Assembly (NCBI GenBank): GCA_016222815.1
Contig: JACRQE010000007.1
Location: 3,073-67,072, forward strand
From: Candidatus Uhrbacteria bacterium
GTDB taxonomy: Bacteria > Patescibacteriota > Patescibacteriia > 2-12-FULL-60-25
Length of the DNA: 64,000 nucleotides
Direction of reading: 5' to 3'
In this document: positions 10,895-63,909 of the stretch, piece by piece
Layout: each line of letters opens with the position of its first letter
Numbering within the stretch: position 1 is the stretch's first letter
Notes under the pieces: generated by a model
Databases searched by the model: none
What the model was told of the DNA's origin: nothing
Seen by the model: the letters and a program-made list of their open reading frames with translations, nothing else
Made by a program: the position numbers and the translations under genes

Positions 10895-11467
10895 TTATCT
10901 GATCTTGGCTAAGTCGTATCTGATCTCTTCCAGCTTACGTAGGTGCTGTCTTGCTTGATCGATCTTATTCCTCAAATTTCCCGTAGCATCCAGCGACAAC
11001 AAAAACTCGACCATGCCTTCGGATATCCCATAAAGTTCGTCCACCTTTTCGGCATCATGCTCGATTGCCGCTTTCGTGGCTAAACGCACGAATTCGCCGA
11101 TCAAATCCGATAAACCTCCGATGAGGATGTCCGGCTCGTCCGTGATGCGCTGCGGCGGAAACAGGTCCTTGCCCTTTATGGCTTTGTCGAAAAAACAAGC
11201 TTCGCAATATTCCTCCAATGAAGCCCGCCACATCCCTTCGTTATTCAACCGCGGCTGTTTTTTTATCAAAGACAATCCTTTTGCCAGCGCTTCCTCGGCT
11301 TCGACCAGAAGCTTATCAGATTTATCGACTTCACCTCTTTGCAACGCAAAAATGGATTGTTTTGAGTTCCTTTGGGCCAACTGGCTCAACTCCTGGAGTT
11401 TCCTGCGGTCAGTATTTATCGCGGCGTAACGCGAGGCCAACGATTTCAGCGCGACTTGGGTTTTCAT
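10895..11467 (-). CDS. Translin-family protein (often mis-annotated as haloacid dehalogenase-like)
   Basis: 190 aa, all-helical. ..LEEYCEACFFDKAI.. and ..ILIGGLSDLIGEFVRLATKAAIEHD.. resemble the translin C-terminal signature. Recognised by eye only. Confidence 0.55.
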   Translation of the reverse strand: MKTQVALKSLASRYAAINTDRRKLQELSQLAQRNSKQSIFALQRGEVDKSDKLLVEAEEALAKGLSLIKKQPRLNNEGMWRASLEEYCEACFFDKAIKGKDLFPPQRITDEPDILIGGLSDLIGEFVRLATKAAIEHDAEKVDELYGISEGMVEFLLSLDATGNLRNKIDQARQHLRKLEEIRYDLAKIR

Positions 11468-11472
11468 GTTGA

Positions 11473-12606
11473 TTATTTGGTATGGATTAGCGAGTAATAA
11501 AGCGCTTCAGTCCGGTTGACCACCGAATTCCATGAATAGAGCCGCATCGCCACTTCGCGTGCCCGCTGGCCGCGCTCACGCACGATCTTGGGGTCATTGA
11601 CCAGCCATTGCAAAGTGTCGCGCAACGCTCCGATATCCCCGACTTTATACGCAACACCTGAATGGTCTATGAGTTCCAAATTCTCCGGGATGTCGCTCAT
11701 CACGACCAAACGGCCGTACGACATGGTTTCCAGGATGGAAAACGCCAAACCCTCACTGCGCGAAGCATGGATGAGGGCATAGGCGTTAGCCGTAAGCTGT
11801 TTCAGCGTTTCTCCCGTCTGCTTTCCGGTGAATACTATCCGCGGATCTCCGTGCGCCAATTTACGGATATATTCCTCGTAATCCTGCTCCTTCCTGTTTT
11901 TGGCCGAAAAACCCACGATCGCCAGCTTCATATCCGTCTCGACCAGCCTGAACGCCCTGATCGCATCATCGATGGCTTTATGCGGGATGAAACGGCATAG
12001 CGTGAAAAAATACTTATTCGGTTCTAACCCGAACAGTTTCAGGTCTTCGTGGCCAACATCGGCCGAGGGGATATCCACCCCGTTCGGGATGTACCAGGCG
12101 AATCGTTTGAATTTACTTCGGCATAGGATCTGGATGGAATGCGAAACTGCAATCGTCGCATCCGGAAAAACAACCGAGGTCCATTCGCCCAAAGCCAAAT
12201 ACATCTTCGCGAACCAGCCCCACTTCTCATGGAATCGGTCGCGGCTATGGAACGTGACCACGACCTTTGCTCTTGGCTTGAAAAACCTCGGTATCCAGGA
12301 CAAGGTGGACGGCCCTACTCCGTGGTAATGGACGATGTCGGCCCGACGGAACAAGACGTGGACCGAAGAAAGGAGCGTGTGCGTGATGGTATCCAGATTC
12401 TTGCTCCGGATGGTCGGCAGAGTAATCAACCTTACGCCCTTATAGAACTTCAATCGACGCGGATTAGCATACGGCCGCACATAAACCGTGACCTTATGGC
12501 CTCGTCCGACTAGTCGCGTAGCCAGCTCTTCGACATGCGTCTCAATACCGCCGCCTAGCGACAAGGCGGCTGGAATACCCTTGCATCCGATGATCGAGAT
12601 ACGCAT
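11473..12606 (-). CDS. Glycosyltransferase family 1 (GT4-like)
   Basis: ORF 11473..12795 trimmed to ATG 12606 (MRISIIGCKGIPAA..). The upstream 63 codons are the antisense translation of the tRNA and a repeat. C-terminal ..SRSEGLAFSILETMSYGRLVV.. is the GT1 E-x7-E region. Confidence 0.88.
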   Translation of the reverse strand: MRISIIGCKGIPAALSLGGGIETHVEELATRLVGRGHKVTVYVRPYANPRRLKFYKGVRLITLPTIRSKNLDTITHTLLSSVHVLFRRADIVHYHGVGPSTLSWIPRFFKPRAKVVVTFHSRDRFHEKWGWFAKMYLALGEWTSVVFPDATIAVSHSIQILCRSKFKRFAWYIPNGVDIPSADVGHEDLKLFGLEPNKYFFTLCRFIPHKAIDDAIRAFRLVETDMKLAIVGFSAKNRKEQDYEEYIRKLAHGDPRIVFTGKQTGETLKQLTANAYALIHASRSEGLAFSILETMSYGRLVVMSDIPENLELIDHSGVAYKVGDIGALRDTLQWLVNDPKIVRERGQRAREVAMRLYSWNSVVNRTEALYYSLIHTK

Positions 12607-15443: not shown

Positions 15444-16490
15444 CTACATCCGGTCCGTAAGCGCCAAAACCACGCCCACGCCTGCCGAAAACATGGAGAT
15501 GAGCCATGTCCTGAATACGATTTGCGACTCTTTCCATCCGATGGCTTGCAGATGGTGGTGCACCGGTGCGCTCAGGAACACTTTCTTCTTGCGGATTTTC
15601 TTTGAGGCGACCTGGATGATGACGGACAGCGACTCGAGCACGAACGGCAAGCCGATGATGGGCAATAACAACGGCTGATTGGTCAGCATGGCTACGACGC
15701 CTAATGCCGTGCCTAAAGACATCGCCCCGGTGTCACCCATGAAAAACGAAGCCGGTGTCACGTTGTACCAGAGAAAGGCCATCAAAGCGCCGACGATGGC
15801 CACGCAAAATACGGCCAAATCCATTTTGCCCTGGGCGAATGCGATGACCGCGTAACCTGTGAACGCGGCCATGAGCGGCCCTCCTGCTAGACCATCCAAA
15901 CCATCGGTCTCGTTGACCGAGAAAGAAGTCGCGATAATGACGATGGCGAATATCGGGATGTAAAGCCAACCCACTTCAAAATTCCCTACGAACGGAATGT
16001 GGATGAAATCCCAACCTAGTTTGGAGTAGAACCACCAAGCGCCGCCTAATGCGATAAGCGAATACGAAATAAGTCGGTGGCGCATGCGCAACCCCCCGCC
16101 TGCCGCACCGATTTTCTTAACGTTCAGATAATCATCCACCAAACCGACCATGGCCGCAGCCAGAAGCGCTCCGATGGGCAATAGCGTCTGTGACCTCGAC
16201 AGGAAATTCCAGGAACACCACGCACCGTCGATGAAAGCGCATCCGCTCGAGAGGATGAGCGTCACGACCAGGACCGTTACCCATACGACCAAACCGCCCA
16301 TGACTGGCGTGCCCGATTTATGCGCGTGCAATCCACCGGCTATCGGCGCCACTTCGGCTGACCGGATAGTCTTTCCCATGCCGTACCGCTTCAGGAGCCT
16401 GATGAGGAACGGCGCCCAAGCCATGGCCAACGCAAAACAACCGAAAGTGATGACGATCAAGCGGATGACGACGAAAGCATTCAGGTTCAT
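15444..16490 (-). CDS. mraY: Phospho-N-acetylmuramoyl-pentapeptide transferase MraY
   Basis: 348 aa polytopic protein with ..NVKKIGAAGGGL.., ..NETDGLDGLAGG.. and ..APVHHHLQ.. motifs. Confidence 0.93.
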   Translation of the reverse strand: MNLNAFVVIRLIVITFGCFALAMAWAPFLIRLLKRYGMGKTIRSAEVAPIAGGLHAHKSGTPVMGGLVVWVTVLVVTLILSSGCAFIDGAWCSWNFLSRSQTLLPIGALLAAAMVGLVDDYLNVKKIGAAGGGLRMRHRLISYSLIALGGAWWFYSKLGWDFIHIPFVGNFEVGWLYIPIFAIVIIATSFSVNETDGLDGLAGGPLMAAFTGYAVIAFAQGKMDLAVFCVAIVGALMAFLWYNVTPASFFMGDTGAMSLGTALGVVAMLTNQPLLLPIIGLPFVLESLSVIIQVASKKIRKKKVFLSAPVHHHLQAIGWKESQIVFRTWLISMFSAGVGVVLALTDRM

Positions 16491-16493
16491 ATC

Positions 16494-16521
16494 GTAGTAC
16501 GCGGTACGAAGTACGAGGTAC
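16494..16521. repeat. Tandem heptamer repeat, 4 units (plus strand GNRGTAC; mraY strand GTACNNC)
   Basis: gtagtac gcggtac gaagtac gaggtac. Ends 3 nt from the mraY ATG and fills most of the 36-nt intergenic gap. Confidence 0.85.
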
Positions 16522-16526
16522 GATTA

Positions 16527-16916
16527 TTAAAGATTAATCAAAACCAAGAAAAACAGGCCTGTACACCACAAGACCGTCAATGCGGCCGTAAACCCAACCA
16601 AAGTCTTGGCCGCAAGTTCGTCGGGCCGATATAAGCCCAAGGCGGTCAGAATGTTGATCAGGAATATGGCCATCATACCAGCCGGTAAGACCATTATCCA
16701 CTGCCACGACTGGACGCTGTCTATGCCGAGGTACACGTTGTAGTGCATCACTAAGATGCCTGAACGCCAACCCTCGGGAATCAACCTCCACAGGAAAAAC
16801 ACCGAGGCCGCGATGATGACTACACCGGTCACGATCGAAGTCCAGCGGATGAAATGGTTTTGCCAGGCGCGTTTGGCCGAAAAGCGCCAGTCGTCCAATC
16901 GCATGAAGTGTATCAA
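16527..16916 (-). CDS. Hypothetical membrane protein (129 aa, about 4 TM)
   Basis: Hydrophobic segments throughout; no family recognised. Immediately upstream of mraY. Confidence 0.55.
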   Translation of the reverse strand: MIHFMRLDDWRFSAKRAWQNHFIRWTSIVTGVVIIAASVFFLWRLIPEGWRSGILVMHYNVYLGIDSVQSWQWIMVLPAGMMAIFLINILTALGLYRPDELAAKTLVGFTAALTVLWCTGLFFLVLINL

Positions 16917-17274: not shown

Positions 17275-17308
17275 ATATTACCACCCAATGTACCTGTCCT
17301 TCCGCGCC

Positions 17309-17337
17309 TTGACAAGCACCCAATTTTAGCTTAATCT
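17309..17337 (+). promoter_or_regulatory. Promoter of rpmA (TTGACA-17-TAATCT)
   Basis: -35 at 17309-17314, 17-nt spacer, -10 at 17332-17337. Leaves a leader of roughly 80 nt. Confidence 0.55.
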
Positions 17338-17386
17338 TGTGGCTATCTAAACATTATCACTTAGAGACTGATCGGCGGCCCCCTCT

Positions 17387-17421
17387 GGCTACAGCCTACC
17401 GCCTACCACCTACATCCTAAC
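17387..17421. repeat. Tandem heptamer repeat, 5 units (NCCTACN)
   Basis: ggctaca gcctacc gcctacc acctaca tcctaac. Ends 3 nt from the rpmA ATG, with no SD. Confidence 0.8.
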
Positions 17422-17424
17422 CAT

Positions 17425-17712
17425 ATGGCACATAAGAAAGCTGGCGGCAGTACTAGTAATGTCCGCGATTCCCAGGGTCAGCGCCTGGGCACAAAACTCT
17501 ACGCCGGCGAGTTCGCCAAGGTCGGCAACATCATCGTCCGCCAACGCGGCACGGCCATCCGTCCGGGATTGAACGTGCGCAAAGGCAGCGACGACACCCT
17601 CTTCGCCGTAGCCGACGGCATCGTCAAGTTCACGGAAAAAAAGGTCCGCCGCTTCACCGGAGCTTTCAAGAAGGTCAAGCTGGCAAACGTCATCCCGGCC
17701 GAGGCGAAGTAA
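17425..17712 (+). CDS. rpmA: 50S ribosomal protein L27
   Basis: [22 protein letters not shown].., canonical L27. No rplU is adjacent. Confidence 0.97.
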
Positions 17713-17727
17713 TCCAAACCGAGATTC

Positions 17728-17754
17728 AAAAAAGCAGCCGCACGGCTGCTTTTT
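17728..17754 (+). terminator. Bidirectional intrinsic terminator
   Basis: aaaaaa-gcagcc-gcac-ggctgc-ttttt, between convergent rpmA and ORF 17770..18360. Confidence 0.8.
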
Positions 17755-20028: not shown

Positions 20029-20064
20029 ACGGTGCTAAATTATAGCACACGGACAACTCACCAG

Positions 20065-30032: not shown

Positions 30033-30101
30033 CGGTGTCAACATATAGCCTGTAACACAAAACATGTGGTAGAAACATGTCGTATTGATGATTTTCATCC
30101 C

Positions 30102-30122
30102 ATGCTACATGCTACATGCTAC
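30102..30122. repeat. Tandem heptamer repeat, 3 x ATGCTAC, abutting the priA ATG
   Basis: atgctac atgctac atgctac ATG. Each unit contains an ATG, and together the ATGs cover all three frames. Confidence 0.85.
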
Positions 30123-31856
30123 ATGAGGTTCGTTTCCGTCGTTCCGGCAATCCGCACCATTCCCGGTGTGGAGTCATTTGACTATTCCATCAGCCCCGAA
30201 GGTACCCTTGAGATAGGTGACCTCATCCGCGTCCCTTTCCGAAACCGACAAATACCAGCAATCGTGGTCGGTTTTTCCGACTCGAGCCAGTACGCCGCAA
30301 AAGCCAAGAACCTCGAAGACCCGCAAATTTTACTTCGTCTCGGTCCGGCGGTCGTAGATTTGCTCGAACGGACGTCCCGTCGAACATTCTCCTCCCACCC
30401 TTCAGTCCTGCTCGCCTGGCTTAGGGAAGTCCCCAAAAGATTCAAATTGCCGCCTGCCCGCGCCTCCAATGCCGATCAACTCGGGATATCGTTCGCCAAA
30501 AAAGAAACCCGCTATCTGGCGGATATACTCCATGCCCAGGATGGGCTGGTGCCGACCGCCAGTTCCTGCAACGGACGTACGCTTATCCTTTCTGCCTGGA
30601 AAAATCCTGCAACCTCTTTGGCCGCAGAATTAGGCTGTCCGGTCCTGCATTCCGACATTCCGGCTGGAGCAGCTTGGAAAATCCTCGTGGACTTCGTCAC
30701 TAGTGACGCACATCAGCTCGTCACTACGAAACTTGGTGCCTGGTTAGCCTGCTTCGCAGACACGGTACTCATCGAAGAACCGGAAAACGACGACCATAAA
30801 CAAGACGAGCTTGCACCCCGCATTGATGCCCGTTGGCTCGTAGCCGAATGCGCTAAAATCCGTCCCAACTTATCTGTCATCGGATTCAGTTTAACCCCCG
30901 GACTGGATGTGGATACTCCATCCCTGCCTGCACTGACACCTGAAACCATTTTCGAGACATTCAGCCGCAGCGGCCGTTCTTCGTTCGACGGTCTGACTGC
31001 CTCGACTATGAATCGCGTAGAGGAGGCGCTGGTCGAAAAGCGCCCTGTCACCATCATCCATCCGGTGCGCGGAGAACGCGCAAGATTTTCCTGCTCCAAC
31101 TGCGGCTGGACCGCGACCTGTCCGGCCTGCGGCTATCAATTGGGGCAATACGGCTCTTCCGGCTTATGCCGAAAATGCGGTCGCAAATCACCCCTGCCTC
31201 TCGATTGTCCGCAATGCGGCGGCACTGACTTCTCGCGCGGCCGACCCGGGTTGGACCGCCTGGTCGAGCAAATCTCCAAAATGGAGTCAGGCTCGACAAT
31301 CAGCATCATCAACCTGACGCAAGCCCAAGAAAACCGATTCCCGCAAACTTCCCTGGTCGTCATCAATGACGCAGCTTTATTAGCCGGAGCAGTTGAAGAC
31401 ATCCGCCGTCGCGAACGCCTAGTGGTCGCCTGGCGGAGACTTGCGGCCAAAGCCCAAATCGCAGGTGCAACCCTCGTGGTACAAGCCAAAGACGAGGTCC
31501 TGGCGCTCTGCCAAAGAACCATGTCATCCGAAGGGTTGGAAGAGGAACGGAAACTCGAAAAAAATGAACGTCGCCTCTTCAACTTCCCGCCTGCGTCCAG
31601 ATTGGTTAAAATGCTGGTGGATGGAGACGAGCACAACGCCGCCGCCCTATTCAAGCATCTGACCGAGGCTTTTCCCCAGGACTGGAATATCTCCGGTCCA
31701 TTCCCTGTTCCTTACCGTTCCTCGACCCGCACTCCCAGGTCCATAATCCAAGTCACTCTTCCGCTTTCTGTCTCTGAACAGGATCTATACGCCGCCTTTG
31801 ACCCGTACAAGCTTGATGCATACATTGACCTTGACCCAATCGCCTTTTTCTGCTAA
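30123..31856 (+). CDS. priA: Primosomal protein N' (PriA) homologue with degenerate helicase motifs
   Basis: N-terminal 3'-BD-like region (..GDLIRVPFRNRQIPAIVVG..) and a PriA Cys-rich zinc region (CSNCGWTATCPACG..CRKCG..CPQCGG). Alternative starts at 30102 and 30066. Confidence 0.75.
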   Translation: MRFVSVVPAIRTIPGVESFDYSISPEGTLEIGDLIRVPFRNRQIPAIVVGFSDSSQYAAKAKNLEDPQILLRLGPAVVDLLERTSRRTFSSHPSVLLAWLREVPKRFKLPPARASNADQLGISFAKKETRYLADILHAQDGLVPTASSCNGRTLILSAWKNPATSLAAELGCPVLHSDIPAGAAWKILVDFVTSDAHQLVTTKLGAWLACFADTVLIEEPENDDHKQDELAPRIDARWLVAECAKIRPNLSVIGFSLTPGLDVDTPSLPALTPETIFETFSRSGRSSFDGLTASTMNRVEEALVEKRPVTIIHPVRGERARFSCSNCGWTATCPACGYQLGQYGSSGLCRKCGRKSPLPLDCPQCGGTDFSRGRPGLDRLVEQISKMESGSTISIINLTQAQENRFPQTSLVVINDAALLAGAVEDIRRRERLVVAWRRLAAKAQIAGATLVVQAKDEVLALCQRTMSSEGLEEERKLEKNERRLFNFPPASRLVKMLVDGDEHNAAALFKHLTEAFPQDWNISGPFPVPYRSSTRTPRSIIQVTLPLSVSEQDLYAAFDPYKLDAYIDLDPIAFFC

Positions 31857-33297: not shown

Positions 33298-33522
33298 ATG
33301 GAAACTGCTATTCAAATAGGTACATACCGGCACTATTCAGGAAAAGCCTACAAAGTCATCGGCATAGGAAAACATAGCGAGACTCTCGAGGACATGGTCA
33401 TTTACGAGGCGCTTTACGACAACCAACTCTCAAAAATCTGGATCAGACCTGTAGCCATGTTCACTGAAATCGTTCCCTGGCCGGACGGCAACTCAAGACC
33501 GCGCTTTGAGTTCATTGGATAG
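33298..33522 (+). CDS. DUF1653-family small protein
   Basis: 74 aa; YRHYSGKAYKVIGIGKHSETLEDMVIYEALY matches my memory of the DUF1653 pattern. Confidence 0.65.
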   Translation: METAIQIGTYRHYSGKAYKVIGIGKHSETLEDMVIYEALYDNQLSKIWIRPVAMFTEIVPWPDGNSRPRFEFIG

Positions 33523-35808
33523 TCCTCGTTTTAACTCAATCATCCCCTCTCCCAGGAACAAAAACGCGAAACCCAGCGGATGGTTCAGATACGGCGTGAA
33601 GAAATGGAGCACGGCCAAAGCCACGAGCGACGAAACCGCTCCGAGGCGCAGCCAGCGCGGTTCTTCCAGTTTCCATATCCTCCAACCCAGCGAAATCAAT
33701 ATCCAAAGCATGACCGGGATGCCTAAAATCCCGAATTTTATCCAATGTTCCAGCCAGCCCCACTCGAACGCATAGGTTTCCTGCATGCCTCCGGTCGCTT
33801 TGACGATACGCGGATCTTTTGATTCGTAAGTCACAGTTGCACCGAAACCCGAACCAAGGACCGGATGCTCGGAAATCTTCTCCCACATTTTAGGCAGAAG
33901 CTTCCAGCGGCTGACCGCCGCATCTTCATCCATGTCCACTCGTTTTATCACCGCATCAGCGAAAGACCCGAACGGGACGTAGGGGATGGGGAAAAGCAAA
34001 GCCGCCAAAACCAAAACGACGGAAATGATACCCGCAGTTACCACCGGCTTGATTTGTCTTGAAAACAATGATCTGTAAGCCGATATCGCGACGACAATCG
34101 CTCCCGCAACCGCTCCCATCCAAAAACTGCGCGATAAGCTGATGAGGAGCACGGCGCCGCTCGCTGCCAACATCCACCATGCAATCCTCGTTTGTACGCG
34201 GTACGCGGTACGCGGTACGTCCAAAAGCCACGCCATCGCCAAGAGCCAAGCTGCCACCTCAAAGACGTGCGACTGGAAGAACACGCGCCACACGTTCTGT
34301 CCGGCGAACGTAATCTCGCCCACTCCACTACGCCGAATCCAGATATATAGACTGTCAGCAAACCACAAGCCGTGCGAAAACACGTATTCGATGAAAAGAG
34401 TCTTCAAAGCGACCCAGAAAACCGCCACAACCGCGGTCGGCACCAATGTTTTAACCAACTTGTCTCCGCGACGCCGGACTATATCCAAAATCGGTACGAG
34501 TAGCAGCAAGTCGAACCAAGCATTCGCGTCGCTGAACAGAAATCTATGGTCACCGCTCTGCCAGCCTCGGAATATCGCGAAAACGATCAACACCGCCAAA
34601 ACCAGATATTGCGACCTCCCTCGTATAATCTGCTTCACGTCATCTCGACTGAAACGGAGAAATCTCCCTAATAAGGCCAATCCCCACCCGAAAAAGATCG
34701 CGGCAAACAAAACCATCCTCAACGAAACCGTCTGCGGCCAAACTCCGATTTGAAACAAATAACCTTTAGACCCCAACGTCAACTCCAAAAGCAATGCGGT
34801 CAGTGCGTATTCAGGCTTTTTCCATGCCCAATACGACACCATGAGAGCTAAAGCGATCGCGATACAGCTATTCAACCAGCTGACACCCAAAACGAAATAC
34901 GAGATGATCTCGAGACCTGCAATCGCCAACAACCATTTCCCAGCCGTCTGGCTGAAAAAATTTATCATATCCACTGATGCCAGCCCGAATGGCACGACAA
35001 CCGCAATCAACCAATATCTCCAGCCAGGATGCCACTTGGCGAAATACCGCTTCAAGCTGGTAGTGAAATACCTTTGGCGCAACGGTTGGAACTCCTTGGC
35101 AAAAGATTGTCCCAGATGATGCACGACTGTGACTTGCGGTAGGTAGACAACGTCCCAGCCTTCCACTTTAGCCGTCTTGCAAAAATCAACTTCCTCCATC
35201 CAGATGAAATATCGCTCGTCATATCCGAGCTTTTGATCAATGAGTTCCTTACGCACCAAAAAACACGCACCCATGACCTGATCCACGGACTGTTCTTTTT
35301 CAAGGTCGACATCCGCCCCTGAATACCTTTTCAAGACCGGAAGCCACGGCATGAAATGCGCCAGCTTCAAGACAAGTGCCGCTTGGTCCCAAACTCCGGG
35401 GAAACGACGCACACTGGCTTGTACGCGACCGTCCGGATATACAAGTTTCGGCCCTAAAATACCGGCCCTTGGACGTTCATCCGCCAACTTCACGAGCTTG
35501 GTCAGGGAACCAGCCGGACATTCCGTATCCGGATTCAGGAACAAAACGTATCGCGCATCAGCTCCCTGGGCGCCGATATTGCAGGCCTTCGCGAATCCGA
35601 GATTTTGTGTGTTACGTGTCACCCGTAGGGGGACTGCATGCCGTGCCCCGATCGATTCGGCGATCGCCACGCTGTCATCGCTCGACGCATTATCCACAAC
35701 CACGCATTCCCAATCCAAACCCTCACAGGCTTTCGGCAAACTCAAAAGATTTTTCTCCAAAAGGTCAGAGACATTCCAAGATACGATGACGATACGCAGA
35801 TCTTTCAT
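33493..35808 (-). CDS. Fusion protein: N-terminal GT2 glycosyltransferase plus C-terminal O-antigen ligase/polymerase-like (Wzy_C) membrane domain
   Basis: 771 aa. GT-A motifs (IVIVSWN.., VVDNASSDDS, NLGFAKACN, LNPD), then about 12 TM with ..LLISLSRSFWMG.. and ..HPVLGSGFG... Confidence 0.85.
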   Translation of the reverse strand: MKDLRIVIVSWNVSDLLEKNLLSLPKACEGLDWECVVVDNASSDDSVAIAESIGARHAVPLRVTRNTQNLGFAKACNIGAQGADARYVLFLNPDTECPAGSLTKLVKLADERPRAGILGPKLVYPDGRVQASVRRFPGVWDQAALVLKLAHFMPWLPVLKRYSGADVDLEKEQSVDQVMGACFLVRKELIDQKLGYDERYFIWMEEVDFCKTAKVEGWDVVYLPQVTVVHHLGQSFAKEFQPLRQRYFTTSLKRYFAKWHPGWRYWLIAVVVPFGLASVDMINFFSQTAGKWLLAIAGLEIISYFVLGVSWLNSCIAIALALMVSYWAWKKPEYALTALLLELTLGSKGYLFQIGVWPQTVSLRMVLFAAIFFGWGLALLGRFLRFSRDDVKQIIRGRSQYLVLAVLIVFAIFRGWQSGDHRFLFSDANAWFDLLLLVPILDIVRRRGDKLVKTLVPTAVVAVFWVALKTLFIEYVFSHGLWFADSLYIWIRRSGVGEITFAGQNVWRVFFQSHVFEVAAWLLAMAWLLDVPRTAYRVQTRIAWWMLAASGAVLLISLSRSFWMGAVAGAIVVAISAYRSLFSRQIKPVVTAGIISVVLVLAALLFPIPYVPFGSFADAVIKRVDMDEDAAVSRWKLLPKMWEKISEHPVLGSGFGATVTYESKDPRIVKATGGMQETYAFEWGWLEHWIKFGILGIPVMLWILISLGWRIWKLEEPRWLRLGAVSSLVALAVLHFFTPYLNHPLGFAFLFLGEGMIELKRGLSNELKARS
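34194..34221. repeat. Tandem heptamer repeat inside a CDS: 3 x GTACGCG plus GTACGTC
   Basis: gtacgcg gtacgcg gtacgcg gtacgtc, translated on the minus strand as DVPRTAYRVQ in a loop of the ligase domain. Confidence 0.85.
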
Positions 35809-44476: not shown

Positions 44477-44866
44477 TCACTCGGTATCACACAGCATGTC
44501 TTCAGGCTTGGTGCATCTCGTGCTATTTATCTTGCCTTCTATCATGCCTTGCGAGAAAACTTCCTCCAATTTAGCATTCGGATTCTTACATGACACGCCT
44601 TCGACGTTAATACCATCTGAATCCTCGCCGGTAATTTGGGCGCAGACTATTCCGCCTTCGGGGCCGATCTTTTCACACAGCTCTTCTGCCTGTTCGACGC
44701 TGGTGGCGGTAGGACCGGTTGTTCTGCAGCTTTCCTTCTCGGTCTGTGCGCAACCGAATGGTCCGCAATTCGCTGCTGCCGCTAAGGCTAAAGCTGATGC
44801 GATTTTCTTTCCCTTTTCCGTGATACTAGCGGCTTTCTTAGGCGCTCTTTGTTCGAAACTTGGCAT
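44477..44866 (-). CDS. Small cysteine-rich, probably exported protein (129 aa, 8 Cys)
   Basis: Basic N-terminus followed by ALALAAAANC, with eight Cys spread through an acidic sequence. No family recognised. Confidence 0.5.
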   Translation of the reverse strand: MPSFEQRAPKKAASITEKGKKIASALALAAAANCGPFGCAQTEKESCRTTGPTATSVEQAEELCEKIGPEGGIVCAQITGEDSDGINVEGVSCKNPNAKLEEVFSQGMIEGKINSTRCTKPEDMLCDTE

Positions 44867-45299: not shown

Positions 45300-47153
45300 T
45301 CAGCGCTTCTCGCCCTCGACCGTCGCCTTGATCCGCCTCACCCCAGCAGACACCGCCTCTTCCTTTTGTATCTTGAACGCCCCCAACTCGCCCGTATGCG
45401 TCACATGAGGCCCGCCGCAGATTTCTTTCGAAAAATCACCCACCGTGTAGACGCTGACCTTATCGCCGTATTTCTGCTCGAATAACCCGATAGCGCCTGT
45501 GGATTTAGCTTCATCAACAGTCATCTCTTCACGCGTCACCGGCAAGTCGCGCCGGATTGCATCGTTCACCAAATCCTCGACCTGTTTGATTTCTTCGGGT
45601 GTCATCTTTTGGGCATGCGAAAAATCGAAACGCAGCCTTTCCGCGGTGATATTGCTCCCCTTCTGCGCCACATGGTCGCCGAGGACGCTTCTCAAAGCCT
45701 TTTGGAGCAGATGCGTCGCCGTATGCAGCCGTGTCGTCTCGACCGAATGTTCGGCTAAACCGCCCTTAAAGGCACCGGCTGAAGCTGTCCGCGACAGTTC
45801 CTGATGTTTTTCGAACTCACGTTTGAAGGCTTCGACATCCAGATTGCCGCCCCGCTCCCCGACCAGCTCTTGCGTCAATTCCAACGGGAATCCATAGGTC
45901 GAGAAAAGGATGAAAGCCTCCTCGCCCGTAATTACGTGGTCGGCCATCATGCTTTCGAATTCCTTCAGTCCCTTCTCTATGGTTTTATCGAATTTTTCCT
46001 CTTCCTGCATGATGGCATCGATGACTTTGGTTCGGTTCGTCTCCAGTTCGGCATAATGTCCGCCGAATTCGCCGATGACTACGCCGGCCAAATGCGACAG
46101 AAACGGTTCGCGGATGCCCAGTCTCCGGCCTTCGCGCACCGCCCGACGGATAAGCCGACGGACGATATATCCCTGGCCAACGTTTGAGGGCAAAACGCCG
46201 CGCGGATCGCCGATGATGAAGGTCGCGGCCCGTGCGTGGTCTGCGATGATACGCATGGACCGCGTTGCCGCATCGTCAGTCCCGTATTTCTTGCCCGACT
46301 TCCCCTCGACAGCCGAAATCAGCACCTGGAACTCCTGAAGATCGAAAACCGTCTGAGCGCCGTTCAACACGGCGGTCGTCCTTTCCAATCCCATGCCCGT
46401 ATCCACGTTCTTCGAGGGCAGCGGTTTGAGTTGGCCGCCCTCCTCTTCGCGCTGGAACTGCATGAACACATTGTTCCAAATCTCGACAAACCTGCCGCAA
46501 TCACAGTTGGGATGGCAGACCTGGCCGTATGCCGGGTCATGGGCTTTTCCGGTATCGTAAAAAATCTCGGTATCCGGTCCGCACAGTCCCTTCATCTTCG
46601 GATCAGGCCACCAATTCTTGGATTTCGGGTATGCGAAGATGCGCGCTCCCCTGTTGGTTGACGCCGGCTCATCCCGTCCCGCCACACCGACCTCTGCCGC
46701 GATGTCGTGCATCCCGAACTGGGCTTGCCAGATGGCGACCGACTCCTCGTCCCGCGGCGCATCCTGGTCGCCTTCGAAAACGGAAACGTAAATCTTCAAC
46801 GGATCAAGGCCCAGCCATTCTTTATCGGTCAGGAATTCATACGACCAACCGATCGATTCAGGTTTGAAGTAATCCCCCAGGGACCAGTTCCCCAGCATTT
46901 CGAAGAACGTCAGGTGTCTATTGTCTCCGACTTCTTCGATATCACCGGTCCGGATGCACTTTTGGCTGTTTGCCAGACGGACACCCATAGGATGCGCCTG
47001 TCCTTTCAGATATGGGATAAGCGGATGCATCCCGGCCATGGTGAACAGCACCGTGGGGTCGTTTTCGGGGATCAATGATGCCGAAGGTATCACGGCATGT
47101 CCTTTGCTCTTGAAGAAATCAAGATATTTTTGGCGTATTTCGGATAATGTCAT
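45300..47153 (-). CDS. alaS: Alanine--tRNA ligase, short form lacking the C-Ala/DHHA1 domain (617 aa)
   Basis: Class II catalytic core, tRNA-recognition domain and editing domain (HTATHLL, CGGPHV). Ends after the editing domain. Confidence 0.93.
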   Translation of the reverse strand: MTLSEIRQKYLDFFKSKGHAVIPSASLIPENDPTVLFTMAGMHPLIPYLKGQAHPMGVRLANSQKCIRTGDIEEVGDNRHLTFFEMLGNWSLGDYFKPESIGWSYEFLTDKEWLGLDPLKIYVSVFEGDQDAPRDEESVAIWQAQFGMHDIAAEVGVAGRDEPASTNRGARIFAYPKSKNWWPDPKMKGLCGPDTEIFYDTGKAHDPAYGQVCHPNCDCGRFVEIWNNVFMQFQREEEGGQLKPLPSKNVDTGMGLERTTAVLNGAQTVFDLQEFQVLISAVEGKSGKKYGTDDAATRSMRIIADHARAATFIIGDPRGVLPSNVGQGYIVRRLIRRAVREGRRLGIREPFLSHLAGVVIGEFGGHYAELETNRTKVIDAIMQEEEKFDKTIEKGLKEFESMMADHVITGEEAFILFSTYGFPLELTQELVGERGGNLDVEAFKREFEKHQELSRTASAGAFKGGLAEHSVETTRLHTATHLLQKALRSVLGDHVAQKGSNITAERLRFDFSHAQKMTPEEIKQVEDLVNDAIRRDLPVTREEMTVDEAKSTGAIGLFEQKYGDKVSVYTVGDFSKEICGGPHVTHTGELGAFKIQKEEAVSAGVRRIKATVEGEKR

Positions 47154-47171
47154 ATGCGGCTTTTCGGTCGT

Positions 47172-47192
47172 ATGCTACATGCTACATGCTTC
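47172..47192. repeat. Tandem heptamer repeat ATGCTAC ATGCTAC ATGCTTC
   Basis: Same unit as at priA but inverted relative to the downstream gene. Lies 18 nt 5' of the alaS ATG (minus strand), in a 50-nt intergenic gap. Confidence 0.85.
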
Positions 47193-47203
47193 ATGACTCG
47201 TGT

Positions 47204-54884: not shown

Positions 54885-54912
54885 GTACCAAGTACTAAGT
54901 ACCAGGTACTGA
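54885..54912. repeat. Tandem heptamer repeat, 4 units GTACYRR
   Basis: gtaccaa gtactaa gtaccag gtactga. Lies 3 nt from the stop of the upstream gene and 34 nt 5' of the ATPase ATG (minus strand). Confidence 0.85.
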
Positions 54913-54915
54913 TTG

Positions 54916-56229
54916 CTATCCGAACGGGATATTCGGCGGCGGTGCGGAACGTTTAGCTTCTGTTTTCTTGAGTTGCGGCGCTTTGACCTGGAGCGTATGC
55001 GGGAAATGCCAGAGCGATGCCAGTTCCTCGGTGCACAGATGGAAATTCGGCGCGCCGACCCAGTTCGACCGTTTGCGGTAAGCTGTTATGAGCCGCCGCT
55101 TCCTGCCGTTATTGCGCCAGTCTTTGAAAAACCACAATGCACCGCTCATGCCGACCTTCTTCAGTTCCGGTTTAAGCGACTGCATGTTGTTGGTATTGAA
55201 TTGTTTGATGGATCCGAAGAACGGCTGGACGATGCGCGGATTGGATTTCACGGCCTTCTTGGCGACGTAGACGAACCTGATTTTGCACAGGTAAACGATT
55301 TTGGACATCTTGTTCTCGATGGCCTCGACCACCACGCGTTCCCCTGGCGTCATGTTGAGCATGCGGAAATCCGGCTGCTTCACATCCTTCTTGGCCGGTG
55401 CCGCCCCGCTGCCTACGATGGCATCTGCGGTGTAGCTCAAAGTCTGGAGCGGCAAGTCAATCGCCTTATCCAAAAAGGTTTTCTTTGCCTCAACTTTTTG
55501 CCCGGTCAGCTTTTTTATGGCCGCAGTCGCAGCCGTGACATAATCGCCCTGCGCTATGGGCGTCAGTACGATCTGGAACCAAGCCTGTTCGCCTACGCCC
55601 ATGCGTCCGAAGCTCTCGAACATGGCCGAAAGCGGATCCTTGAATTCCATCGAGACTTTATCTTCGAAATACGGATATGTTTTCAGCGGATAATAATCCT
55701 TCTTCACCGGGATAAGTTCCGCGCCCCACACATCCCATTCTTCATCCGGATATTGGTTCGGGACTTTGTACGCATAATCCTCCACTTCCACGATTTGGGC
55801 GTCCGTATACTGGGCGTAAATAGCAGCTTCGACCAAATCGCGCAGCTTGCGCGTGGTCCGGATGATGAACTGGATATGGCCCTCGATAGAGACGAGTTCC
55901 ACGGCAATCGTGTCTTGGGTATAACCATCGATCCATTTGTCTTTCCAGCTGGGTCCGCTATGCGCTCCCGCAAGATACGCGAACATGTTGTCTACGGCGC
56001 GCGGTCCCTGCTCGGTCAATCGCGGTATATCAATAGCCAAGACTATGTACGTCTTCTTGGTCATATTCAGCGTCTGCCGCCATTCCAGCCATAGCCTCGA
56101 GCAGCCCCAAAGTATGACCGCCAACAAAACTACCCAACCGCCATTGGCTAAAAAGAAACCCATGGCGATAAAGGGGTTATCGCCTATCTGATCAATGAAC
56201 GACCAGTCAAAATTGAGGAATTCGTCCAT
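54916..56229 (-). CDS. Membrane protein partner of the VirD4-like ATPase (437 aa, 2 N-terminal TM)
   Basis: Two TM helices (aa about 20-50), then a large soluble domain (..ASLWHFPH.. near the C-terminus). No named family recalled. Confidence 0.65.
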   Translation of the reverse strand: MDEFLNFDWSFIDQIGDNPFIAMGFFLANGGWVVLLAVILWGCSRLWLEWRQTLNMTKKTYIVLAIDIPRLTEQGPRAVDNMFAYLAGAHSGPSWKDKWIDGYTQDTIAVELVSIEGHIQFIIRTTRKLRDLVEAAIYAQYTDAQIVEVEDYAYKVPNQYPDEEWDVWGAELIPVKKDYYPLKTYPYFEDKVSMEFKDPLSAMFESFGRMGVGEQAWFQIVLTPIAQGDYVTAATAAIKKLTGQKVEAKKTFLDKAIDLPLQTLSYTADAIVGSGAAPAKKDVKQPDFRMLNMTPGERVVVEAIENKMSKIVYLCKIRFVYVAKKAVKSNPRIVQPFFGSIKQFNTNNMQSLKPELKKVGMSGALWFFKDWRNNGRKRRLITAYRKRSNWVGAPNFHLCTEELASLWHFPHTLQVKAPQLKKTEAKRSAPPPNIPFG

Positions 56230-57238: not shown

Positions 57239-59290
57239 TTATTTCTTGTCTTCAGTCTTATTTAGGAAGAGCCAGCCAAAACGCTTCGGTATCGAAGTGG
57301 TCGCCACCAGCCGCAACAATGTGCGCGTCACGATGATGGAGGTGAAGAGCGAAGTCAGGATGCCGATCGCCAGGGTCAACGCGAAGCCCTTGATGATCGA
57401 AGACGAGAACCAATACAGGACAGCGCACGAGATGAGCGTCGTCGTGTTTCCGTCGCGAATTGAAGGCCAGGCGCGCCTGAAGGCTTCTTCGATTGCCAAG
57501 ATCCAGCTCTTGCCTGATTTAAGTTCTTCCTTGAGGCGCTCGAACACCAGTACGTTAGCGTCCACCGCGATGCCGAGCGACAATATGAAGCCCGCGATGC
57601 CCGACAGGGTCAAAGTCACGGGCAAGAGCTTGAAGATCGAGAAAGATATGCCGACGTATAATCCCAGCGAAACGACCGCCAACAAACCAGCCGCCCGGTA
57701 CCAGATCAACATGAACAGGGCGACGAACACAAAACCCCAGATACCTGCTACCAGCGACTTGTTGACCGAGTCCTGGCCTAACGTGGATCCGACCGTTTGC
57801 TGGGCGATGAGTTTGATCGGCACCGGCAAAGCGCCCTGCTGCAGCCGCATGGCCTTAGTCTTGGCTTCTTCAATCGAATAGTTTCCTGTGATCACGGCCT
57901 GACCGTTGCTGATCTCGGTTTGGACCACCGGCGCAATTTCCACGTTACCGTCGAGGAAGATTGCGACGCGCTTGCCCACGTTGCGCTTGGTGATGTCAGC
58001 GAACATCTTGGTGCCTTCATCGTCGAACTGCAGGGCTATCTGCGGACTGCCTGTGCGCTGGTCGAAATCCAGCTTGGCGCTCTTGAGCTGTTTGCCGCCC
58101 AATTGCGTATCCTTCCATTCTCCCTGCGCCGGCAGGATGTCTGTGGATTGGGTCTTCTTGAAGAACACGGCGCGGACACGGACGTCATTTGCCGTCCGTT
58201 CATCCGACTTATAAATCAGGTGATAACCGAACTGCGTCTCAACGATATCGGAGACATCCCCCTTCTTCATTGCGTAAATGGCGTTCTCGAACGGTTCGAC
58301 CATCGCCCCCTTGCCGAACCAGCCCAAATCCCCGCCCATCTCTGACGCACCCGGTTCTTCGGAATACTTTTTCGCTTGCGCCACGAAATTCTGGGCTGTG
58401 GTCTCCTTCTTGATGTCTTCGATGACCTTCTTGGCTTCTTCCTTGGTCCGCGTCGTGGAAGTCGGAGCGCTTTGCGCCCCAGCCCACTGGATCAGGAGGT
58501 GGCTCCCCTTGACTTCCGGGTCCGCCGCTTTTAACTCTTCGGCCTTGGCGACGACGTAAGCTTCGGGCAAATCAATCACCCTGTTCAGCACTTCCCCGGA
58601 TTTGAGGTTCTTTACCGCATCATAAACGACTGCATATTGGGTCTTATCCTTGATGAAACCTAAATCCCCGCCCAAAACCTTGCTCGTCTCATCATCCGAA
58701 TGGTCTTTGGCCATCGCTTCCACCGAACCGGGATCTTTCATCGCCTTGGCCAAATCAGCCTCCGCATCCTTTTTGGCTGCGGCATTCTGTTCGTCCATCT
58801 TCTTCTGTTCGTCCGCGGTCAAGGAACGCGGCGGTTCGTTATTCTCTTCCTTGAACTCAAGGATGGGGGTTTCGCCGATGAGCTTGATCGCCTGGTTGAC
58901 ATCTTTGATACCTGCCAGTTCGACCGACACGCGCCATGAATCACCGGCCTGCGCCGTGGTGATGAGCGGTTCCGAGACGCCTAGCGAATTGACGCGTCTC
59001 TCGATGACGTCGCGTACGCCGTCCAACGATGTCGAACGGTCCGTCGCCGGGACCTTGGAGACGTCGGCTTCGTACTCAAGACGAGTTCCGCCCTGGAGGT
59101 CCAGGCCGAGCACAAAGCCTTTTTCCACATGGCCCAAATGCGTCCCGACCCAGTAATTCAACCAATCGATGGCTCGGTTGGTGGCCGGCGGATAAGCGAT
59201 GCCTCCGACCAGCAGAGCTAAAACCAACAATAGCAAAGCGCGCTTTCTGACGGCTGAGCGCGGTAAAGAAACCGTAGTGGGTTTTGACAT
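57239..59290 (-). CDS. secD: Protein translocase subunit SecD with inserted tandem parvulin-type PPIase domains
   Basis: GLDLQGGTRLEYEA, P1 domain and C-terminal 6-TM bundle. About 220 aa inserted with ..GGDLGWFGKGAMVEPFENA..GYHLIYK.. ATG at 59290 preferred over TTG at 59305. Confidence 0.9.
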   Translation of the reverse strand: MSKPTTVSLPRSAVRKRALLLLVLALLVGGIAYPPATNRAIDWLNYWVGTHLGHVEKGFVLGLDLQGGTRLEYEADVSKVPATDRSTSLDGVRDVIERRVNSLGVSEPLITTAQAGDSWRVSVELAGIKDVNQAIKLIGETPILEFKEENNEPPRSLTADEQKKMDEQNAAAKKDAEADLAKAMKDPGSVEAMAKDHSDDETSKVLGGDLGFIKDKTQYAVVYDAVKNLKSGEVLNRVIDLPEAYVVAKAEELKAADPEVKGSHLLIQWAGAQSAPTSTTRTKEEAKKVIEDIKKETTAQNFVAQAKKYSEEPGASEMGGDLGWFGKGAMVEPFENAIYAMKKGDVSDIVETQFGYHLIYKSDERTANDVRVRAVFFKKTQSTDILPAQGEWKDTQLGGKQLKSAKLDFDQRTGSPQIALQFDDEGTKMFADITKRNVGKRVAIFLDGNVEIAPVVQTEISNGQAVITGNYSIEEAKTKAMRLQQGALPVPIKLIAQQTVGSTLGQDSVNKSLVAGIWGFVFVALFMLIWYRAAGLLAVVSLGLYVGISFSIFKLLPVTLTLSGIAGFILSLGIAVDANVLVFERLKEELKSGKSWILAIEEAFRRAWPSIRDGNTTTLISCAVLYWFSSSIIKGFALTLAIGILTSLFTSIIVTRTLLRLVATTSIPKRFGWLFLNKTEDKK

Positions 59291-59304
59291 ATAGAATCTG
59301 GCCA

Positions 59305-59333
59305 AGTCTAGCTAAAAGACGCGGTTTAGGCAA
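59305..59333 (-). promoter_or_regulatory. Candidate secDF promoter TTGCCT-17-TAGACT
   Basis: On the minus strand: -35 at 59333-59328, -10 at 59310-59305. Would give a very short leader to ATG 59290. Confidence 0.3.
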
Positions 59334-63824: not shown

Positions 63825-63863
63825 TCTAGACCGGAAAGCTGAATTTTACAATCAGCTGATCGC

Positions 63864-63891
63864 AAAAGGGTGCGGCATGCCGCACCCTTTT
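63864..63891. terminator. Perfect 28-nt GCATGC-centred palindrome (bidirectional terminator / repeat family P)
   Basis: aaaagggtgcggcatgccgcaccctttt, 18 nt after the stop of the partial upstream ORF on the minus strand. Confidence 0.7.
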
Positions 63892-63909
63892 GCTGTCTAT
63901 CAGGCTATC

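Follow-up and report, generated by a model that had tools for sequence, protein, structure and literature searches.

A stretch of 64,000 nucleotides (nt) of contig JACRQE010000007.1 (assembly GCA_016222815.1, positions 3,073 to 67,072 of the forward strand; hereafter the window, from whose first letter all positions are counted), belonging to a member of Candidatus Uhrbacteria, contains six short tandem arrays of heptanucleotides, five of which are located just upstream of genes. The host is a streamlined member of the Patescibacteria (candidate phyla radiation, CPR) with a very compact genome. An earlier inspection of the letters alone (the sequence-only reading) had drawn attention to an array preceding mraY and to five other runs with the same 7-nt period, and all six are present where it had placed them. 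According to the Pfam matches, the genes that adjoin or contain the arrays encode MraY, ribosomal protein L27 (rpmA), PriA, a short AlaRS of 617 aa (alaS), a TrwB/VirD4-like ATPase and a GT2/Wzy_C fusion protein.

The mraY array (16494-16521, minus strand) is composed of four head-to-tail units of the type GTACYNC, with a higher-order period of 14 nt. It occupies the 36-nt spacer between the stop codon of an ftsL-like gene (16527-16529) and the mraY ATG at 16490, where the minus strand (16490-16529) reads TAA-TAATC-GTACCTC-GTACTTC-GTACCGC-GTACTAC-GAT-ATG, and it ends 3 nt from the ATG. The array preceding rpmA (17384-17421, plus strand) belongs to a CTAC family and reads TCTGG, then CTACAGC CTACCGC CTACCAC CTACATC, then CTAAC; its heptads, at 17389-17421, are followed by CAT and by the ATG at 17425, again 3 nt from the start. 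Upstream of priA, 3.6 perfect copies of CATGCTA (30101-30125, plus strand) abut the gene, so that the last ATG of the array, at 30123, is the priA start codon. The alaS array (47172-47195, minus strand) is located in the 50-nt gap 5' of the gene and consists of 3.4 units, ATGCTAC if read on the plus strand. The sense strand is CATGAAG CATGTAG CATGTAG CAT and ends 18 nt from the ATG at 47153; the coding strand of alaS therefore reads GTAGCAT, which is the orientation opposite to that of the priA copy. A second array of the GTAC family (54885-54912, minus strand; sense GTACCTG GTACTTA GTACTTG GTACAGA, in the other reading GTACCAA GTACTAA GTACCAG GTACTGA) lies in the 65-nt gap between a DUF8128 gene and the gene for the TrwB/VirD4-like ATPase, 34 nt from the ATG at 54850. 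The sixth array (34194-34221, minus strand) is formed by 3.7 perfect copies of GTACCGC and is placed inside the GT2/Wzy_C gene (33493-35808, 771 aa); over 34194-34219 it can also be read as 3.7 copies of GTACGCG, and it encodes ..D-VPRTAYR-VQ.. (aa 529-538).

Three unit families are thus present in the 64 kb, namely GTACYNN (three loci), CTACNNC, and ATGCTAC (two loci, in both orientations), and the five intergenic arrays end 3, 3, 0, 18 and 34 nt from the respective ATG. Tandem Repeats Finder (TRF) assigns 3.4-4.4 units to each of the six arrays, three of which are degenerate and two 100% perfect. In the three degenerate arrays, variant cells are confined to the 3-nt spacer, and the 4-nt core xTAC never changes; such an invariance has a probability of about 0.003-0.03, according to the way of counting mutational events, for a core that was defined after seeing the data.

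That these runs should be the product of chance similarity or of faulty assembly, as their individual shortness might suggest, is next to impossible. At period 7, five loci hold an array in which four or more units share an invariant 4-nt core, whereas 100 first-order Markov simulations predict 0.01, and no such array was found in the window at periods 5, 6 and 8-15. When arrays of at least three units are considered, the window contains eight loci with period 7 against 1.35 expected. Intergenic DNA accounts for 5.6% of the window, yet it holds five of the six arrays (binomial P = 3.2e-6); 24 of the 29 window gaps of at least 30 nt are without an array. All six arrays are 100% identical in three to four independent Logan assemblies (SRR12113394, SRR12113395, SRR12113397, SRR12113407), which disposes of the suspicion of an assembly artefact, and the same phenomenon is found in related genomes from other studies. 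The earlier claim of a non-random 7-nt family with a TAC-containing core is borne out, and the family is nearly confined to non-coding spacers, usually close 5' of a start codon. As for the GTAC tetranucleotide, its count in the window (125) is close to the expectation (128), with no sign of avoidance or enrichment, and for this reason the hypothesis that the arrays are leftover or decoy RsaI-type restriction sites was rejected.

The Logan assemblies were also compared for the number of units. No differences were found in ten contigs of the window genome, although this is a weak test, as the assemblies appear to sample one population, nor in the single independent assembly (L123, SRR8449812) recovered for the strain of the related locus L025. 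It should be noted that contig L123 ends inside a heptamer array (equivalent to position 12181 of L025), which indicates that such arrays can break short-read assemblies.

Period-7 arrays are by no means limited to the window. Locus L025, whose MraY is 78% identical, has 12 of them in 21 kb, in nearly every gap and with more than five unit families; units of the type CTACCCT/CTACCGT recur at four to five loci, one of the gaps occupied separates convergent genes, and other arrays flank a tRNA gene. No arrays above the chance level were detected in L008, L013, L018 and L029 (21 kb each). In 1.24 Mb of related loci, TRF reported 51 arrays of at least three copies with period 7, compared with 14 for the next commonest period, and 32 of the 51 were intergenic, while intergenic DNA makes up 8.1% of the sequence. 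A tolerance-based scan put the density of period-7 arrays, per 10 kb, at 4.3 in intergenic and at 0.2 in coding DNA. Of the core-invariant arrays in 810 kb of alaS loci, 27 had period 7, compared with 0-10 for each of the other periods; these loci came from a metagenome scan for AlaRS that gave distant relatives only (50-58% identity), and they provide a background rather than a test of orthology. Many of the arrays of the relatives are inverted pairs, potentially forming long hairpins. A bias in the composition of the sense strand (poverty in G) was not found to be a rule across 21 unpaired arrays (8 vs 11).

Long, mostly perfect heptamer arrays are also present in the IMG/VR viral-labelled contigs L125, L127, L129, L140, L158, L177, L182 and L193, with units such as (CTACTGG)n, (AGTACTG)n, (GGTACTA)n, (GGTACTT)n and (GTACCGT)n, several of which share ACTGA or TACTG with the TAACTGA repeat of the Beggiatoaceae discussed below. 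A scan of viral contigs for TCTGGCTAC-N3-CTAC-N3-CTAC gave six matches, roughly the chance level by our estimate, three of which are of the (CTACTGG)n or (CTACTGA)n type, where TCTGG is part of the unit. A scan for 3.6 copies of GTACYNN gave about 80 loci (100 stretches); the ten inspected were long and mostly perfect, e.g. (AGTACTG)n, one having a higher-order structure. All that can be drawn from these scans is that units of this kind have a wide distribution. A gene of the Translin family (PF01997; single-strand nucleic-acid-binding) is located at 10895-11467 and is kept in L029 and L025; it does not track with the arrays, as L029 has the gene and no arrays.

The order of genes pyrG - L27 - NifU - ftsL-like - mraY - ftsW - murG is kept among the relatives. 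The mraY array is absent in all the relatives examined (> 20), in which the junction measures 0-12 nt; among these are L029 (MraY 90% identical, junction TGA-cat-ATG), L030 (86%) and L005 (84%). The rpmA leader differs from lineage to lineage: (CTACNNC)x4-5 in the window, (ACAGGTT)x5.6 in L012, a degenerate remnant in L025, and nothing in L029 and L005. In L030 (JGI 3300042903) the rpmA leader contains, at 2757-2849, the longest array seen in the clade, (AGTCGTT AGTCGTG)x6.6 or 13.3 heptamers, 12 nt from the L27 start. The alaS gap has no array in L117-L120 (AlaS 85% identical), and has GTAC-type direct and inverted arrays in L121 (84%), while the VirD4 gap of L117 contains degenerate period-7 inverted arrays. 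Finally, the stretch of the Wzy gene that harbours the coding array is rich in indels in the alignment with the L117 orthologue, which has no array. The comparison shows the arrays to be lineage-specific additions to otherwise very short intergenic spacers.

No translation signal of their own distinguishes the genes that follow the arrays. A Shine-Dalgarno (SD)-like match of even 4 nt precedes only 10 of the 62 genes of the window, and leaders are A-rich throughout. The missing SD, which the sequence-only reading had noted at mraY, is therefore the genome-wide norm (52 of 62 genes), and an SD-independent initiation element specific to the array genes was rejected as a candidate on the same grounds. 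Leaderless or short-leader mRNAs are suggested to be widespread in the host, a TATAAT-like box being found within about 20 nt of the ATG in several genes (e.g. upstream of pyrG at 20029-20050, and of the genes 54916-56229 and 44477-44866). Nor do the arrays consistently mark first genes of transcription units, as had been supposed. Since the ftsL-like/mraY junction measures 0-12 nt in more than 20 relatives, it appears to be an operon-internal, coupled junction, so that mraY is improbable as a first gene; both alaS and the VirD4-like gene follow co-directional genes, at 50 and 65 nt, respectively.

Consensus scans predicted neither a promoter nor a terminator at the mraY, priA and VirD4 arrays. 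At alaS, a weak candidate not reported by the scan (TTGAAC-17-TAGCAT, 8/12 matches) would have its -10 box inside the array. The position of the arrays with respect to -10 and -35 boxes is inconsistent. Upstream of rpmA, a promoter is inferred at 17309-17337 (plus strand), with the -35 box TTGACA (17309-17314), a 17-nt spacer and the -10 box TAATCT (17332-17337); the -10 box fits the consensus at only three of six positions, which is why the scan did not report it. The -35 box lies within the palindrome CTTGACAAG, which also provides the -35 box (TTGTCA) of the divergent NifU gene, making 17287-17337 a bidirectional promoter, and the CTTGTCAAG and AGATTA blocks of this region are kept across the Uhrbacteria relatives. 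From this arrangement we infer that the rpmA array is located in the 5' untranslated region of rpmA; the promoter is the context of the array and not a member of the repeat family. The NifU promoter was found by the scan (TTGTCA-17-TACATT), and its -10 box ends about 12 nt before the NifU ATG, so that the leader should be very short. A bidirectional intrinsic terminator, AAAAAGCAGCCG-CA-CGGCTGCTTTTT, is located at 17729-17754 between the convergent rpmA and a gene for a 196-aa protein, showing that canonical terminators exist in the host and are unlike the heptamer arrays.

A common RNA structure was not found for the five leaders, whose folds are unrelated (z = 0.0, 0.5, -1.85, 0.3 and -1.8), and the sole Rfam match was tRNA. 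The priA array weakly pairs with an upstream 13-nt repeat at 30060-30084 (z = -1.85), and the VirD4-like array is partly self-complementary (z = -1.8). The priA array supplies an ATG in all three frames, the second of which opens a 5-codon open reading frame (ORF) ending in an ATGA overlap with the priA start; the start of priA was called at 30123 in two Logan assemblies and at 30102 in one (577 or 584 aa). Likewise, as read from the sequence, the first ATG of the alaS array opens a 14-codon upstream ORF (47154-47196) whose TGA overlaps the alaS ATG as ATGA.

The sequences at the ends of the arrays are informative about their origin. Four CTAC arrays, one from the window and three from L025, all begin with TCTGGCTAC despite being at non-orthologous loci, and three of them end with CTAAC. 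Similarly, the mraY and VirD4 arrays can be aligned in the sense orientation including both flanks, stop-N-AATC ... GAT. In L025, moreover, two palindromic elements of about 75 nt (at 2695-2785 and 12140-12228), which consist of heptads and have AGTAGTTAGGG-loop-CCCTAACTACT at the centre, are paralogues; one is flanked by convergent genes, the other by ftsW and murG. Such boundary sequences shared by non-orthologous loci point to copying between loci. In addition, mraY, L030 and L121 show higher-order periods (14 and 21 nt) of the sort that slippage of blocks of several units usually leaves behind.

On balance, therefore, we think that the arrays are probably heptanucleotide simple-sequence repeats similar to the short tandemly repeated repetitive (STRR) sequences of cyanobacteria, copied between spacers and reshaped by slippage, with only incidental effects. 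An array would be seeded by the copying of an existing one into a new spacer, for which recombination, template switching or mobilization could serve. Slipped-strand mispairing would then make the array grow and shrink and build the 14- and 21-nt higher-order units, in a 7-nt register which bacterial replication appears to favour according to a hypothesis of Mrazek (2007), here taken from the papers that cite it. Selection would purge arrays from ORFs, because a 7-nt unit shifts the frame, whereas arrays in spacers would be tolerated because SD-independent initiation makes few demands on the sequence 5' of the start codon. Any effect on expression is most likely incidental and not a dedicated regulation; possible examples are the extra 32 nt that separate the ftsL-like gene from mraY, the AUGs or small upstream ORF 5' of priA and alaS, and the weak hairpins.

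Several observations weigh against this explanation. An invariant xTAC core with a variable spacer is not produced by neutral decay alone, although concerted evolution or a recent 14-nt duplication could produce it. By eye, units containing GTA/TAC predominate (all six arrays of the window, most of those in L025, both in L121), which implies biased seeding or some recognition. The CTAC and the GTAC arrays each keep one orientation relative to the coding strand of the flanking or host gene. In the 1.24 Mb of related loci, one array is located between convergent genes, against about 5.5 expected from the length of the gaps, a scarcity that fits a link to the 5' ends of genes. Furthermore, slippage is deduced and not observed, as the assemblies do not differ in the number of units, and no mechanism for copying was identified, the Pfam lists of the window containing no transposase. 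Because of the core invariance, the unit bias, the orientation and the depletion in convergent gaps, models based on protein binding or on mobile elements stay alive.

In the first of these models, the arrays would be cis-regulatory sites at which a multimeric protein, bound cooperatively, reads one 4-nt xTAC core every 7 nt, marking a growth-related regulon (mraY, rpmA, priA, alaS and the VirD4-like gene). We consider this unlikely. Analogues on DNA would be the omega repressor and ToxR on their heptads (below); on the RNA side they would be the cold-shock and S1 domains, which cover about 7 nt each, and HutP, which acts on UAG-N4 repeats. A reader of this type would account for a core that is invariant and a spacer that is variable in all three degenerate arrays, and the palindromic GTAC core would suit a symmetric dimer. 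The direct and inverted heptad arrays of L121 and L025, reminiscent of the omega operators described below, agree with the model, and so do the uniform orientation of the members of the CTAC and of the GTAC family, the scarcity of arrays in convergent gaps and the position of the rpmA array in a transcribed leader, which is deduced from the promoter kept across relatives; the TAACTGA repeats of the Beggiatoaceae were interpreted likewise (PMC4679880). However, a single factor could not read every unit, given three families in the 64 kb and over five in L025, and the same spacers contain unrelated units or nothing in relatives whose flanking proteins are 84-90% identical. Moreover, ATGCTAC occurs in both orientations with respect to the downstream gene, the mraY array sits at an operon junction without a predicted promoter, the placement relative to -10 and -35 boxes is inconsistent, a composition bias of the sense strand is missing over the 21 unpaired arrays, and no candidate binding protein was identified, although a cognate protein was not tested for. 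A conserved operator with tandem sites, which was one of the roles first suggested, is therefore improbable, given the absence of arrays or the presence of unrelated units at orthologous sites, the three unit families and the two orientations.

A mobile origin, in which the arrays are non-autonomous elements similar to repetitive extragenic palindromic sequences (REPs) or to miniature inverted-repeat transposable elements, and an HUH transposase of the REP-associated tyrosine transposase (RAYT)/IS200 type recognizes GTAG/CTAC beside a hairpin, would make the heptads structural and not the result of slippage. It would explain the boundaries TCTGGCTAC...CTAAC common to non-orthologous loci and to two genomes, the paralogous palindromic elements of about 75 nt in L025 and the frequent inverted pairs among the arrays of the relatives. 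GTAG is also the tag of the largest REP superfamily (PMC3733652), and a pair of 21-nt palindromes flanked by GTAG...CTAC is present at 481-529. The arrays of the window, however, are direct repeats for which no inverted partner arm was found, three of five show no significant fold, and the 64 kb contain no transposase gene in the Pfam lists. REPs are not made of tandem heptads, the number and sequence of units differ between copies, as slippage predicts, and the palindrome at 481-529 is not repeated in the window or in the fetched loci. Overall, a mobile origin appears rather improbable. Another conceivable role is that of contingency loci, in which slippage would change the number of units and thereby switch or tune expression. 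The clearest candidate would be the 3.7 copies of GTACCGC in the surface-polysaccharide GT2/Wzy_C gene, where one unit shifts the frame, followed by the one at the start of priA. Two arrays are 100% perfect, one is placed in a cell-envelope glycan gene, a classical setting for phase variation, and the 13-unit array of L030 testifies that expansion occurs in the group. Repeats of 7 bp in promoters tune the hmw genes of Haemophilus. These, and the phase variation by intergenic simple-sequence repeats in the same genus (PMC12721329), are parallels. Against this role, the arrays have just 3.4-4.4 units and three of six are degenerate, the unit number does not differ at any of the six loci in three to four independent assemblies, and switching would bring no evident advantage to mraY, rpmA, priA and alaS, which are housekeeping genes. 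The priA array lies 5' of the start codon, and a change of one unit leaves the priA frame intact; the Wzy copy (34194-34219) is the only one at which the gain or loss of a unit would switch a gene. We therefore regard contingency loci as very unlikely. Lastly, in a more speculative vein, the TAC-core heptads, rather than being passive microsatellites, could be the footprint of an as yet unrecognized activity widespread in Patescibacteria, either an xTAC-reading multimer controlling SD-less genes or an enzyme that writes the arrays, or mobilizes them, into intergenic spacers. This is a doubtful proposal; an array-writing enzyme, if real, would explain the dominance of period 7, the invariant cores and the shared ends TCTGGCTAC...CTAAC and AATC...GAT.

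Some other features of the window deserve mention. The two 21-nt palindromes at 481-529 are GC-rich and abut each other, as GTAG-GGGCAAGGCATGCCTTGCCCC-GGGCGACGCATGCGTCGCCC-CTAC, just past the 3' end of the gene at 537-2456, an arrangement resembling an inverted pair of GTAG-tagged REPs. A REP family was nevertheless rejected here, because the pair is single-copy in the window and in the fetched loci. A perfect 32-nt palindrome, GCAAAAGGGTGCGGCATGCCGCACCCTTTTGC, is located at 63862-63893 upstream of secA and is centred on GCATGC, like both palindromes at 484-525; these may form a small family of GCATGC-centred palindromes. In addition, an unusual fusion is seen in SecD (57239-59305), whose first P1 segment is separated from the P1 head by a peptidyl-prolyl isomerase (rotamase) domain of the PpiC type (aa 256-367).

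The arrays are of interest in several respects. Families of heptanucleotide repeats have been known from cyanobacteria since 1990, with Xanthomonas and the Beggiatoaceae added later, and neither their origin nor their function is understood. In the ultra-small CPR genomes, intergenic DNA makes up 5-8% of the sequence examined, yet in some lineages period-7 arrays fill much of it. These genomes therefore offer a simple system for two questions, namely why the register is 7 nt, and whether SD-independent translation and the coupling of genes are affected by such arrays. A practical side exists as well, since the arrays break assemblies and move the calls of gene starts, as in the case of priA.

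The statement of the sequence-only reading that no element with this architecture had been described turned out to be wrong, as heptanucleotide tandem repeats have been reported in several groups (PMC4692102, PMC4679880); a full-text literature search turned up no description of such arrays in Patescibacteria. Among the known systems, the GTAG-tagged REPs, which are mobilized by RAYTs (PMC3733652), resemble the arrays in being small, dispersed, intergenic GTAG/CTAC repeats, often in inverted pairs and in species-specific families. They are, however, single palindromes of 20-40 bp, whereas the arrays of the window are without a palindrome, and no RAYT is present in the Pfam lists of the window. 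The omega repressor of plasmid pSM19035 binds, in the form of ribbon-helix-helix dimers, to WATCACW heptads. ToxR acts on TTTTGAT heptads at ctxAB (10.1101/2021.05.14.444153). These operators are similar to the arrays in that units of 7 bp with a conserved core follow one another without a gap, in direct orientation and, in the case of omega, also inverted; they are read cooperatively, with one protein per heptad. At least two contiguous 7-bp heptads with a conserved core are indeed present in the arrays, but the operators overlap defined promoters and have one heptad type per regulator and a known cognate protein, whereas no promoter is predicted at the mraY, priA and VirD4 arrays, and three heptad types occur in the 64 kb.

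A closer resemblance is found with repeats that are not operators. According to two papers that cite the original work (Mrazek, 2007, cited in PMC4679880 and PMC4692102), heptanucleotides outnumber all other long simple-sequence repeats in many prokaryotes, and polymerase slippage has been proposed as their origin. The intergenic heptamers GGGAATC of Xanthomonas and GGGGAYT of Nostoc (Rehm et al., 2015; PMC4692102) are, like the arrays, heptameric, intergenic and over-represented with respect to other periods, and the Xanthomonas set also varies in length and sequence between close relatives at the same intergenic positions and includes some inverted pairs capable of folding into stem-loops; they differ in being G-rich and capable of forming G-quadruplexes, which the TAC-core units cannot do. 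The STRR heptanucleotides of heterocystous cyanobacteria (Mazel, 1990, via PMC4692102 and PMC4679880) are, in the account given by the citing papers, tandem 7-nt units in a few families spread over many dispersed intergenic loci, lineage-specific, with slippage as the proposed origin. The same traits are found in the window arrays, which consist of head-to-tail 7-nt units beyond chance, are mostly intergenic, belong to recurring families and have a patchy distribution with rapid turnover. STRRs differ in being usually longer and near-perfect, while the window arrays are short (3-5 units) and combine a 4-nt core that does not vary with a 3-nt spacer that does.

The closest match to the window arrays is the TAACTGA repeat of the Beggiatoaceae, which is present in 2-6 copies ending one to a few nt before SD-less starts, ribosomal protein genes included (MacGregor, 2015; PMC4679880). 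These repeats have been found in marine Beggiatoaceae, some cyanobacteria and Bacteroidetes, and their function is not established (PMC4679880). Like the window arrays, they are tandem heptamers often interrupted by related 7-mers, nearly all intergenic, located ahead of housekeeping genes, in some cases overlapping the end of the upstream ORF, and with a patchy distribution. As to the distance from the start codon, the window arrays end 0-34 nt from the ATG, in a genome where the SD is generally missing. The differences are that a single unit dominates the genome (169 sets) with a strong forward orientation there, while the window has at least three families, one of them in both orientations; that the units in the window are GTACYNN, CTACNNC and ATGCTAC, although GTACTGA and CTACTGA-like units share ACTGA with the Beggiatoaceae repeat; and that the host belongs to the Patescibacteria. 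No new regulatory element is shown by the arrays; they are, instead, a new instance, for the phylum Patescibacteria, of a known and still unexplained kind of repeat.

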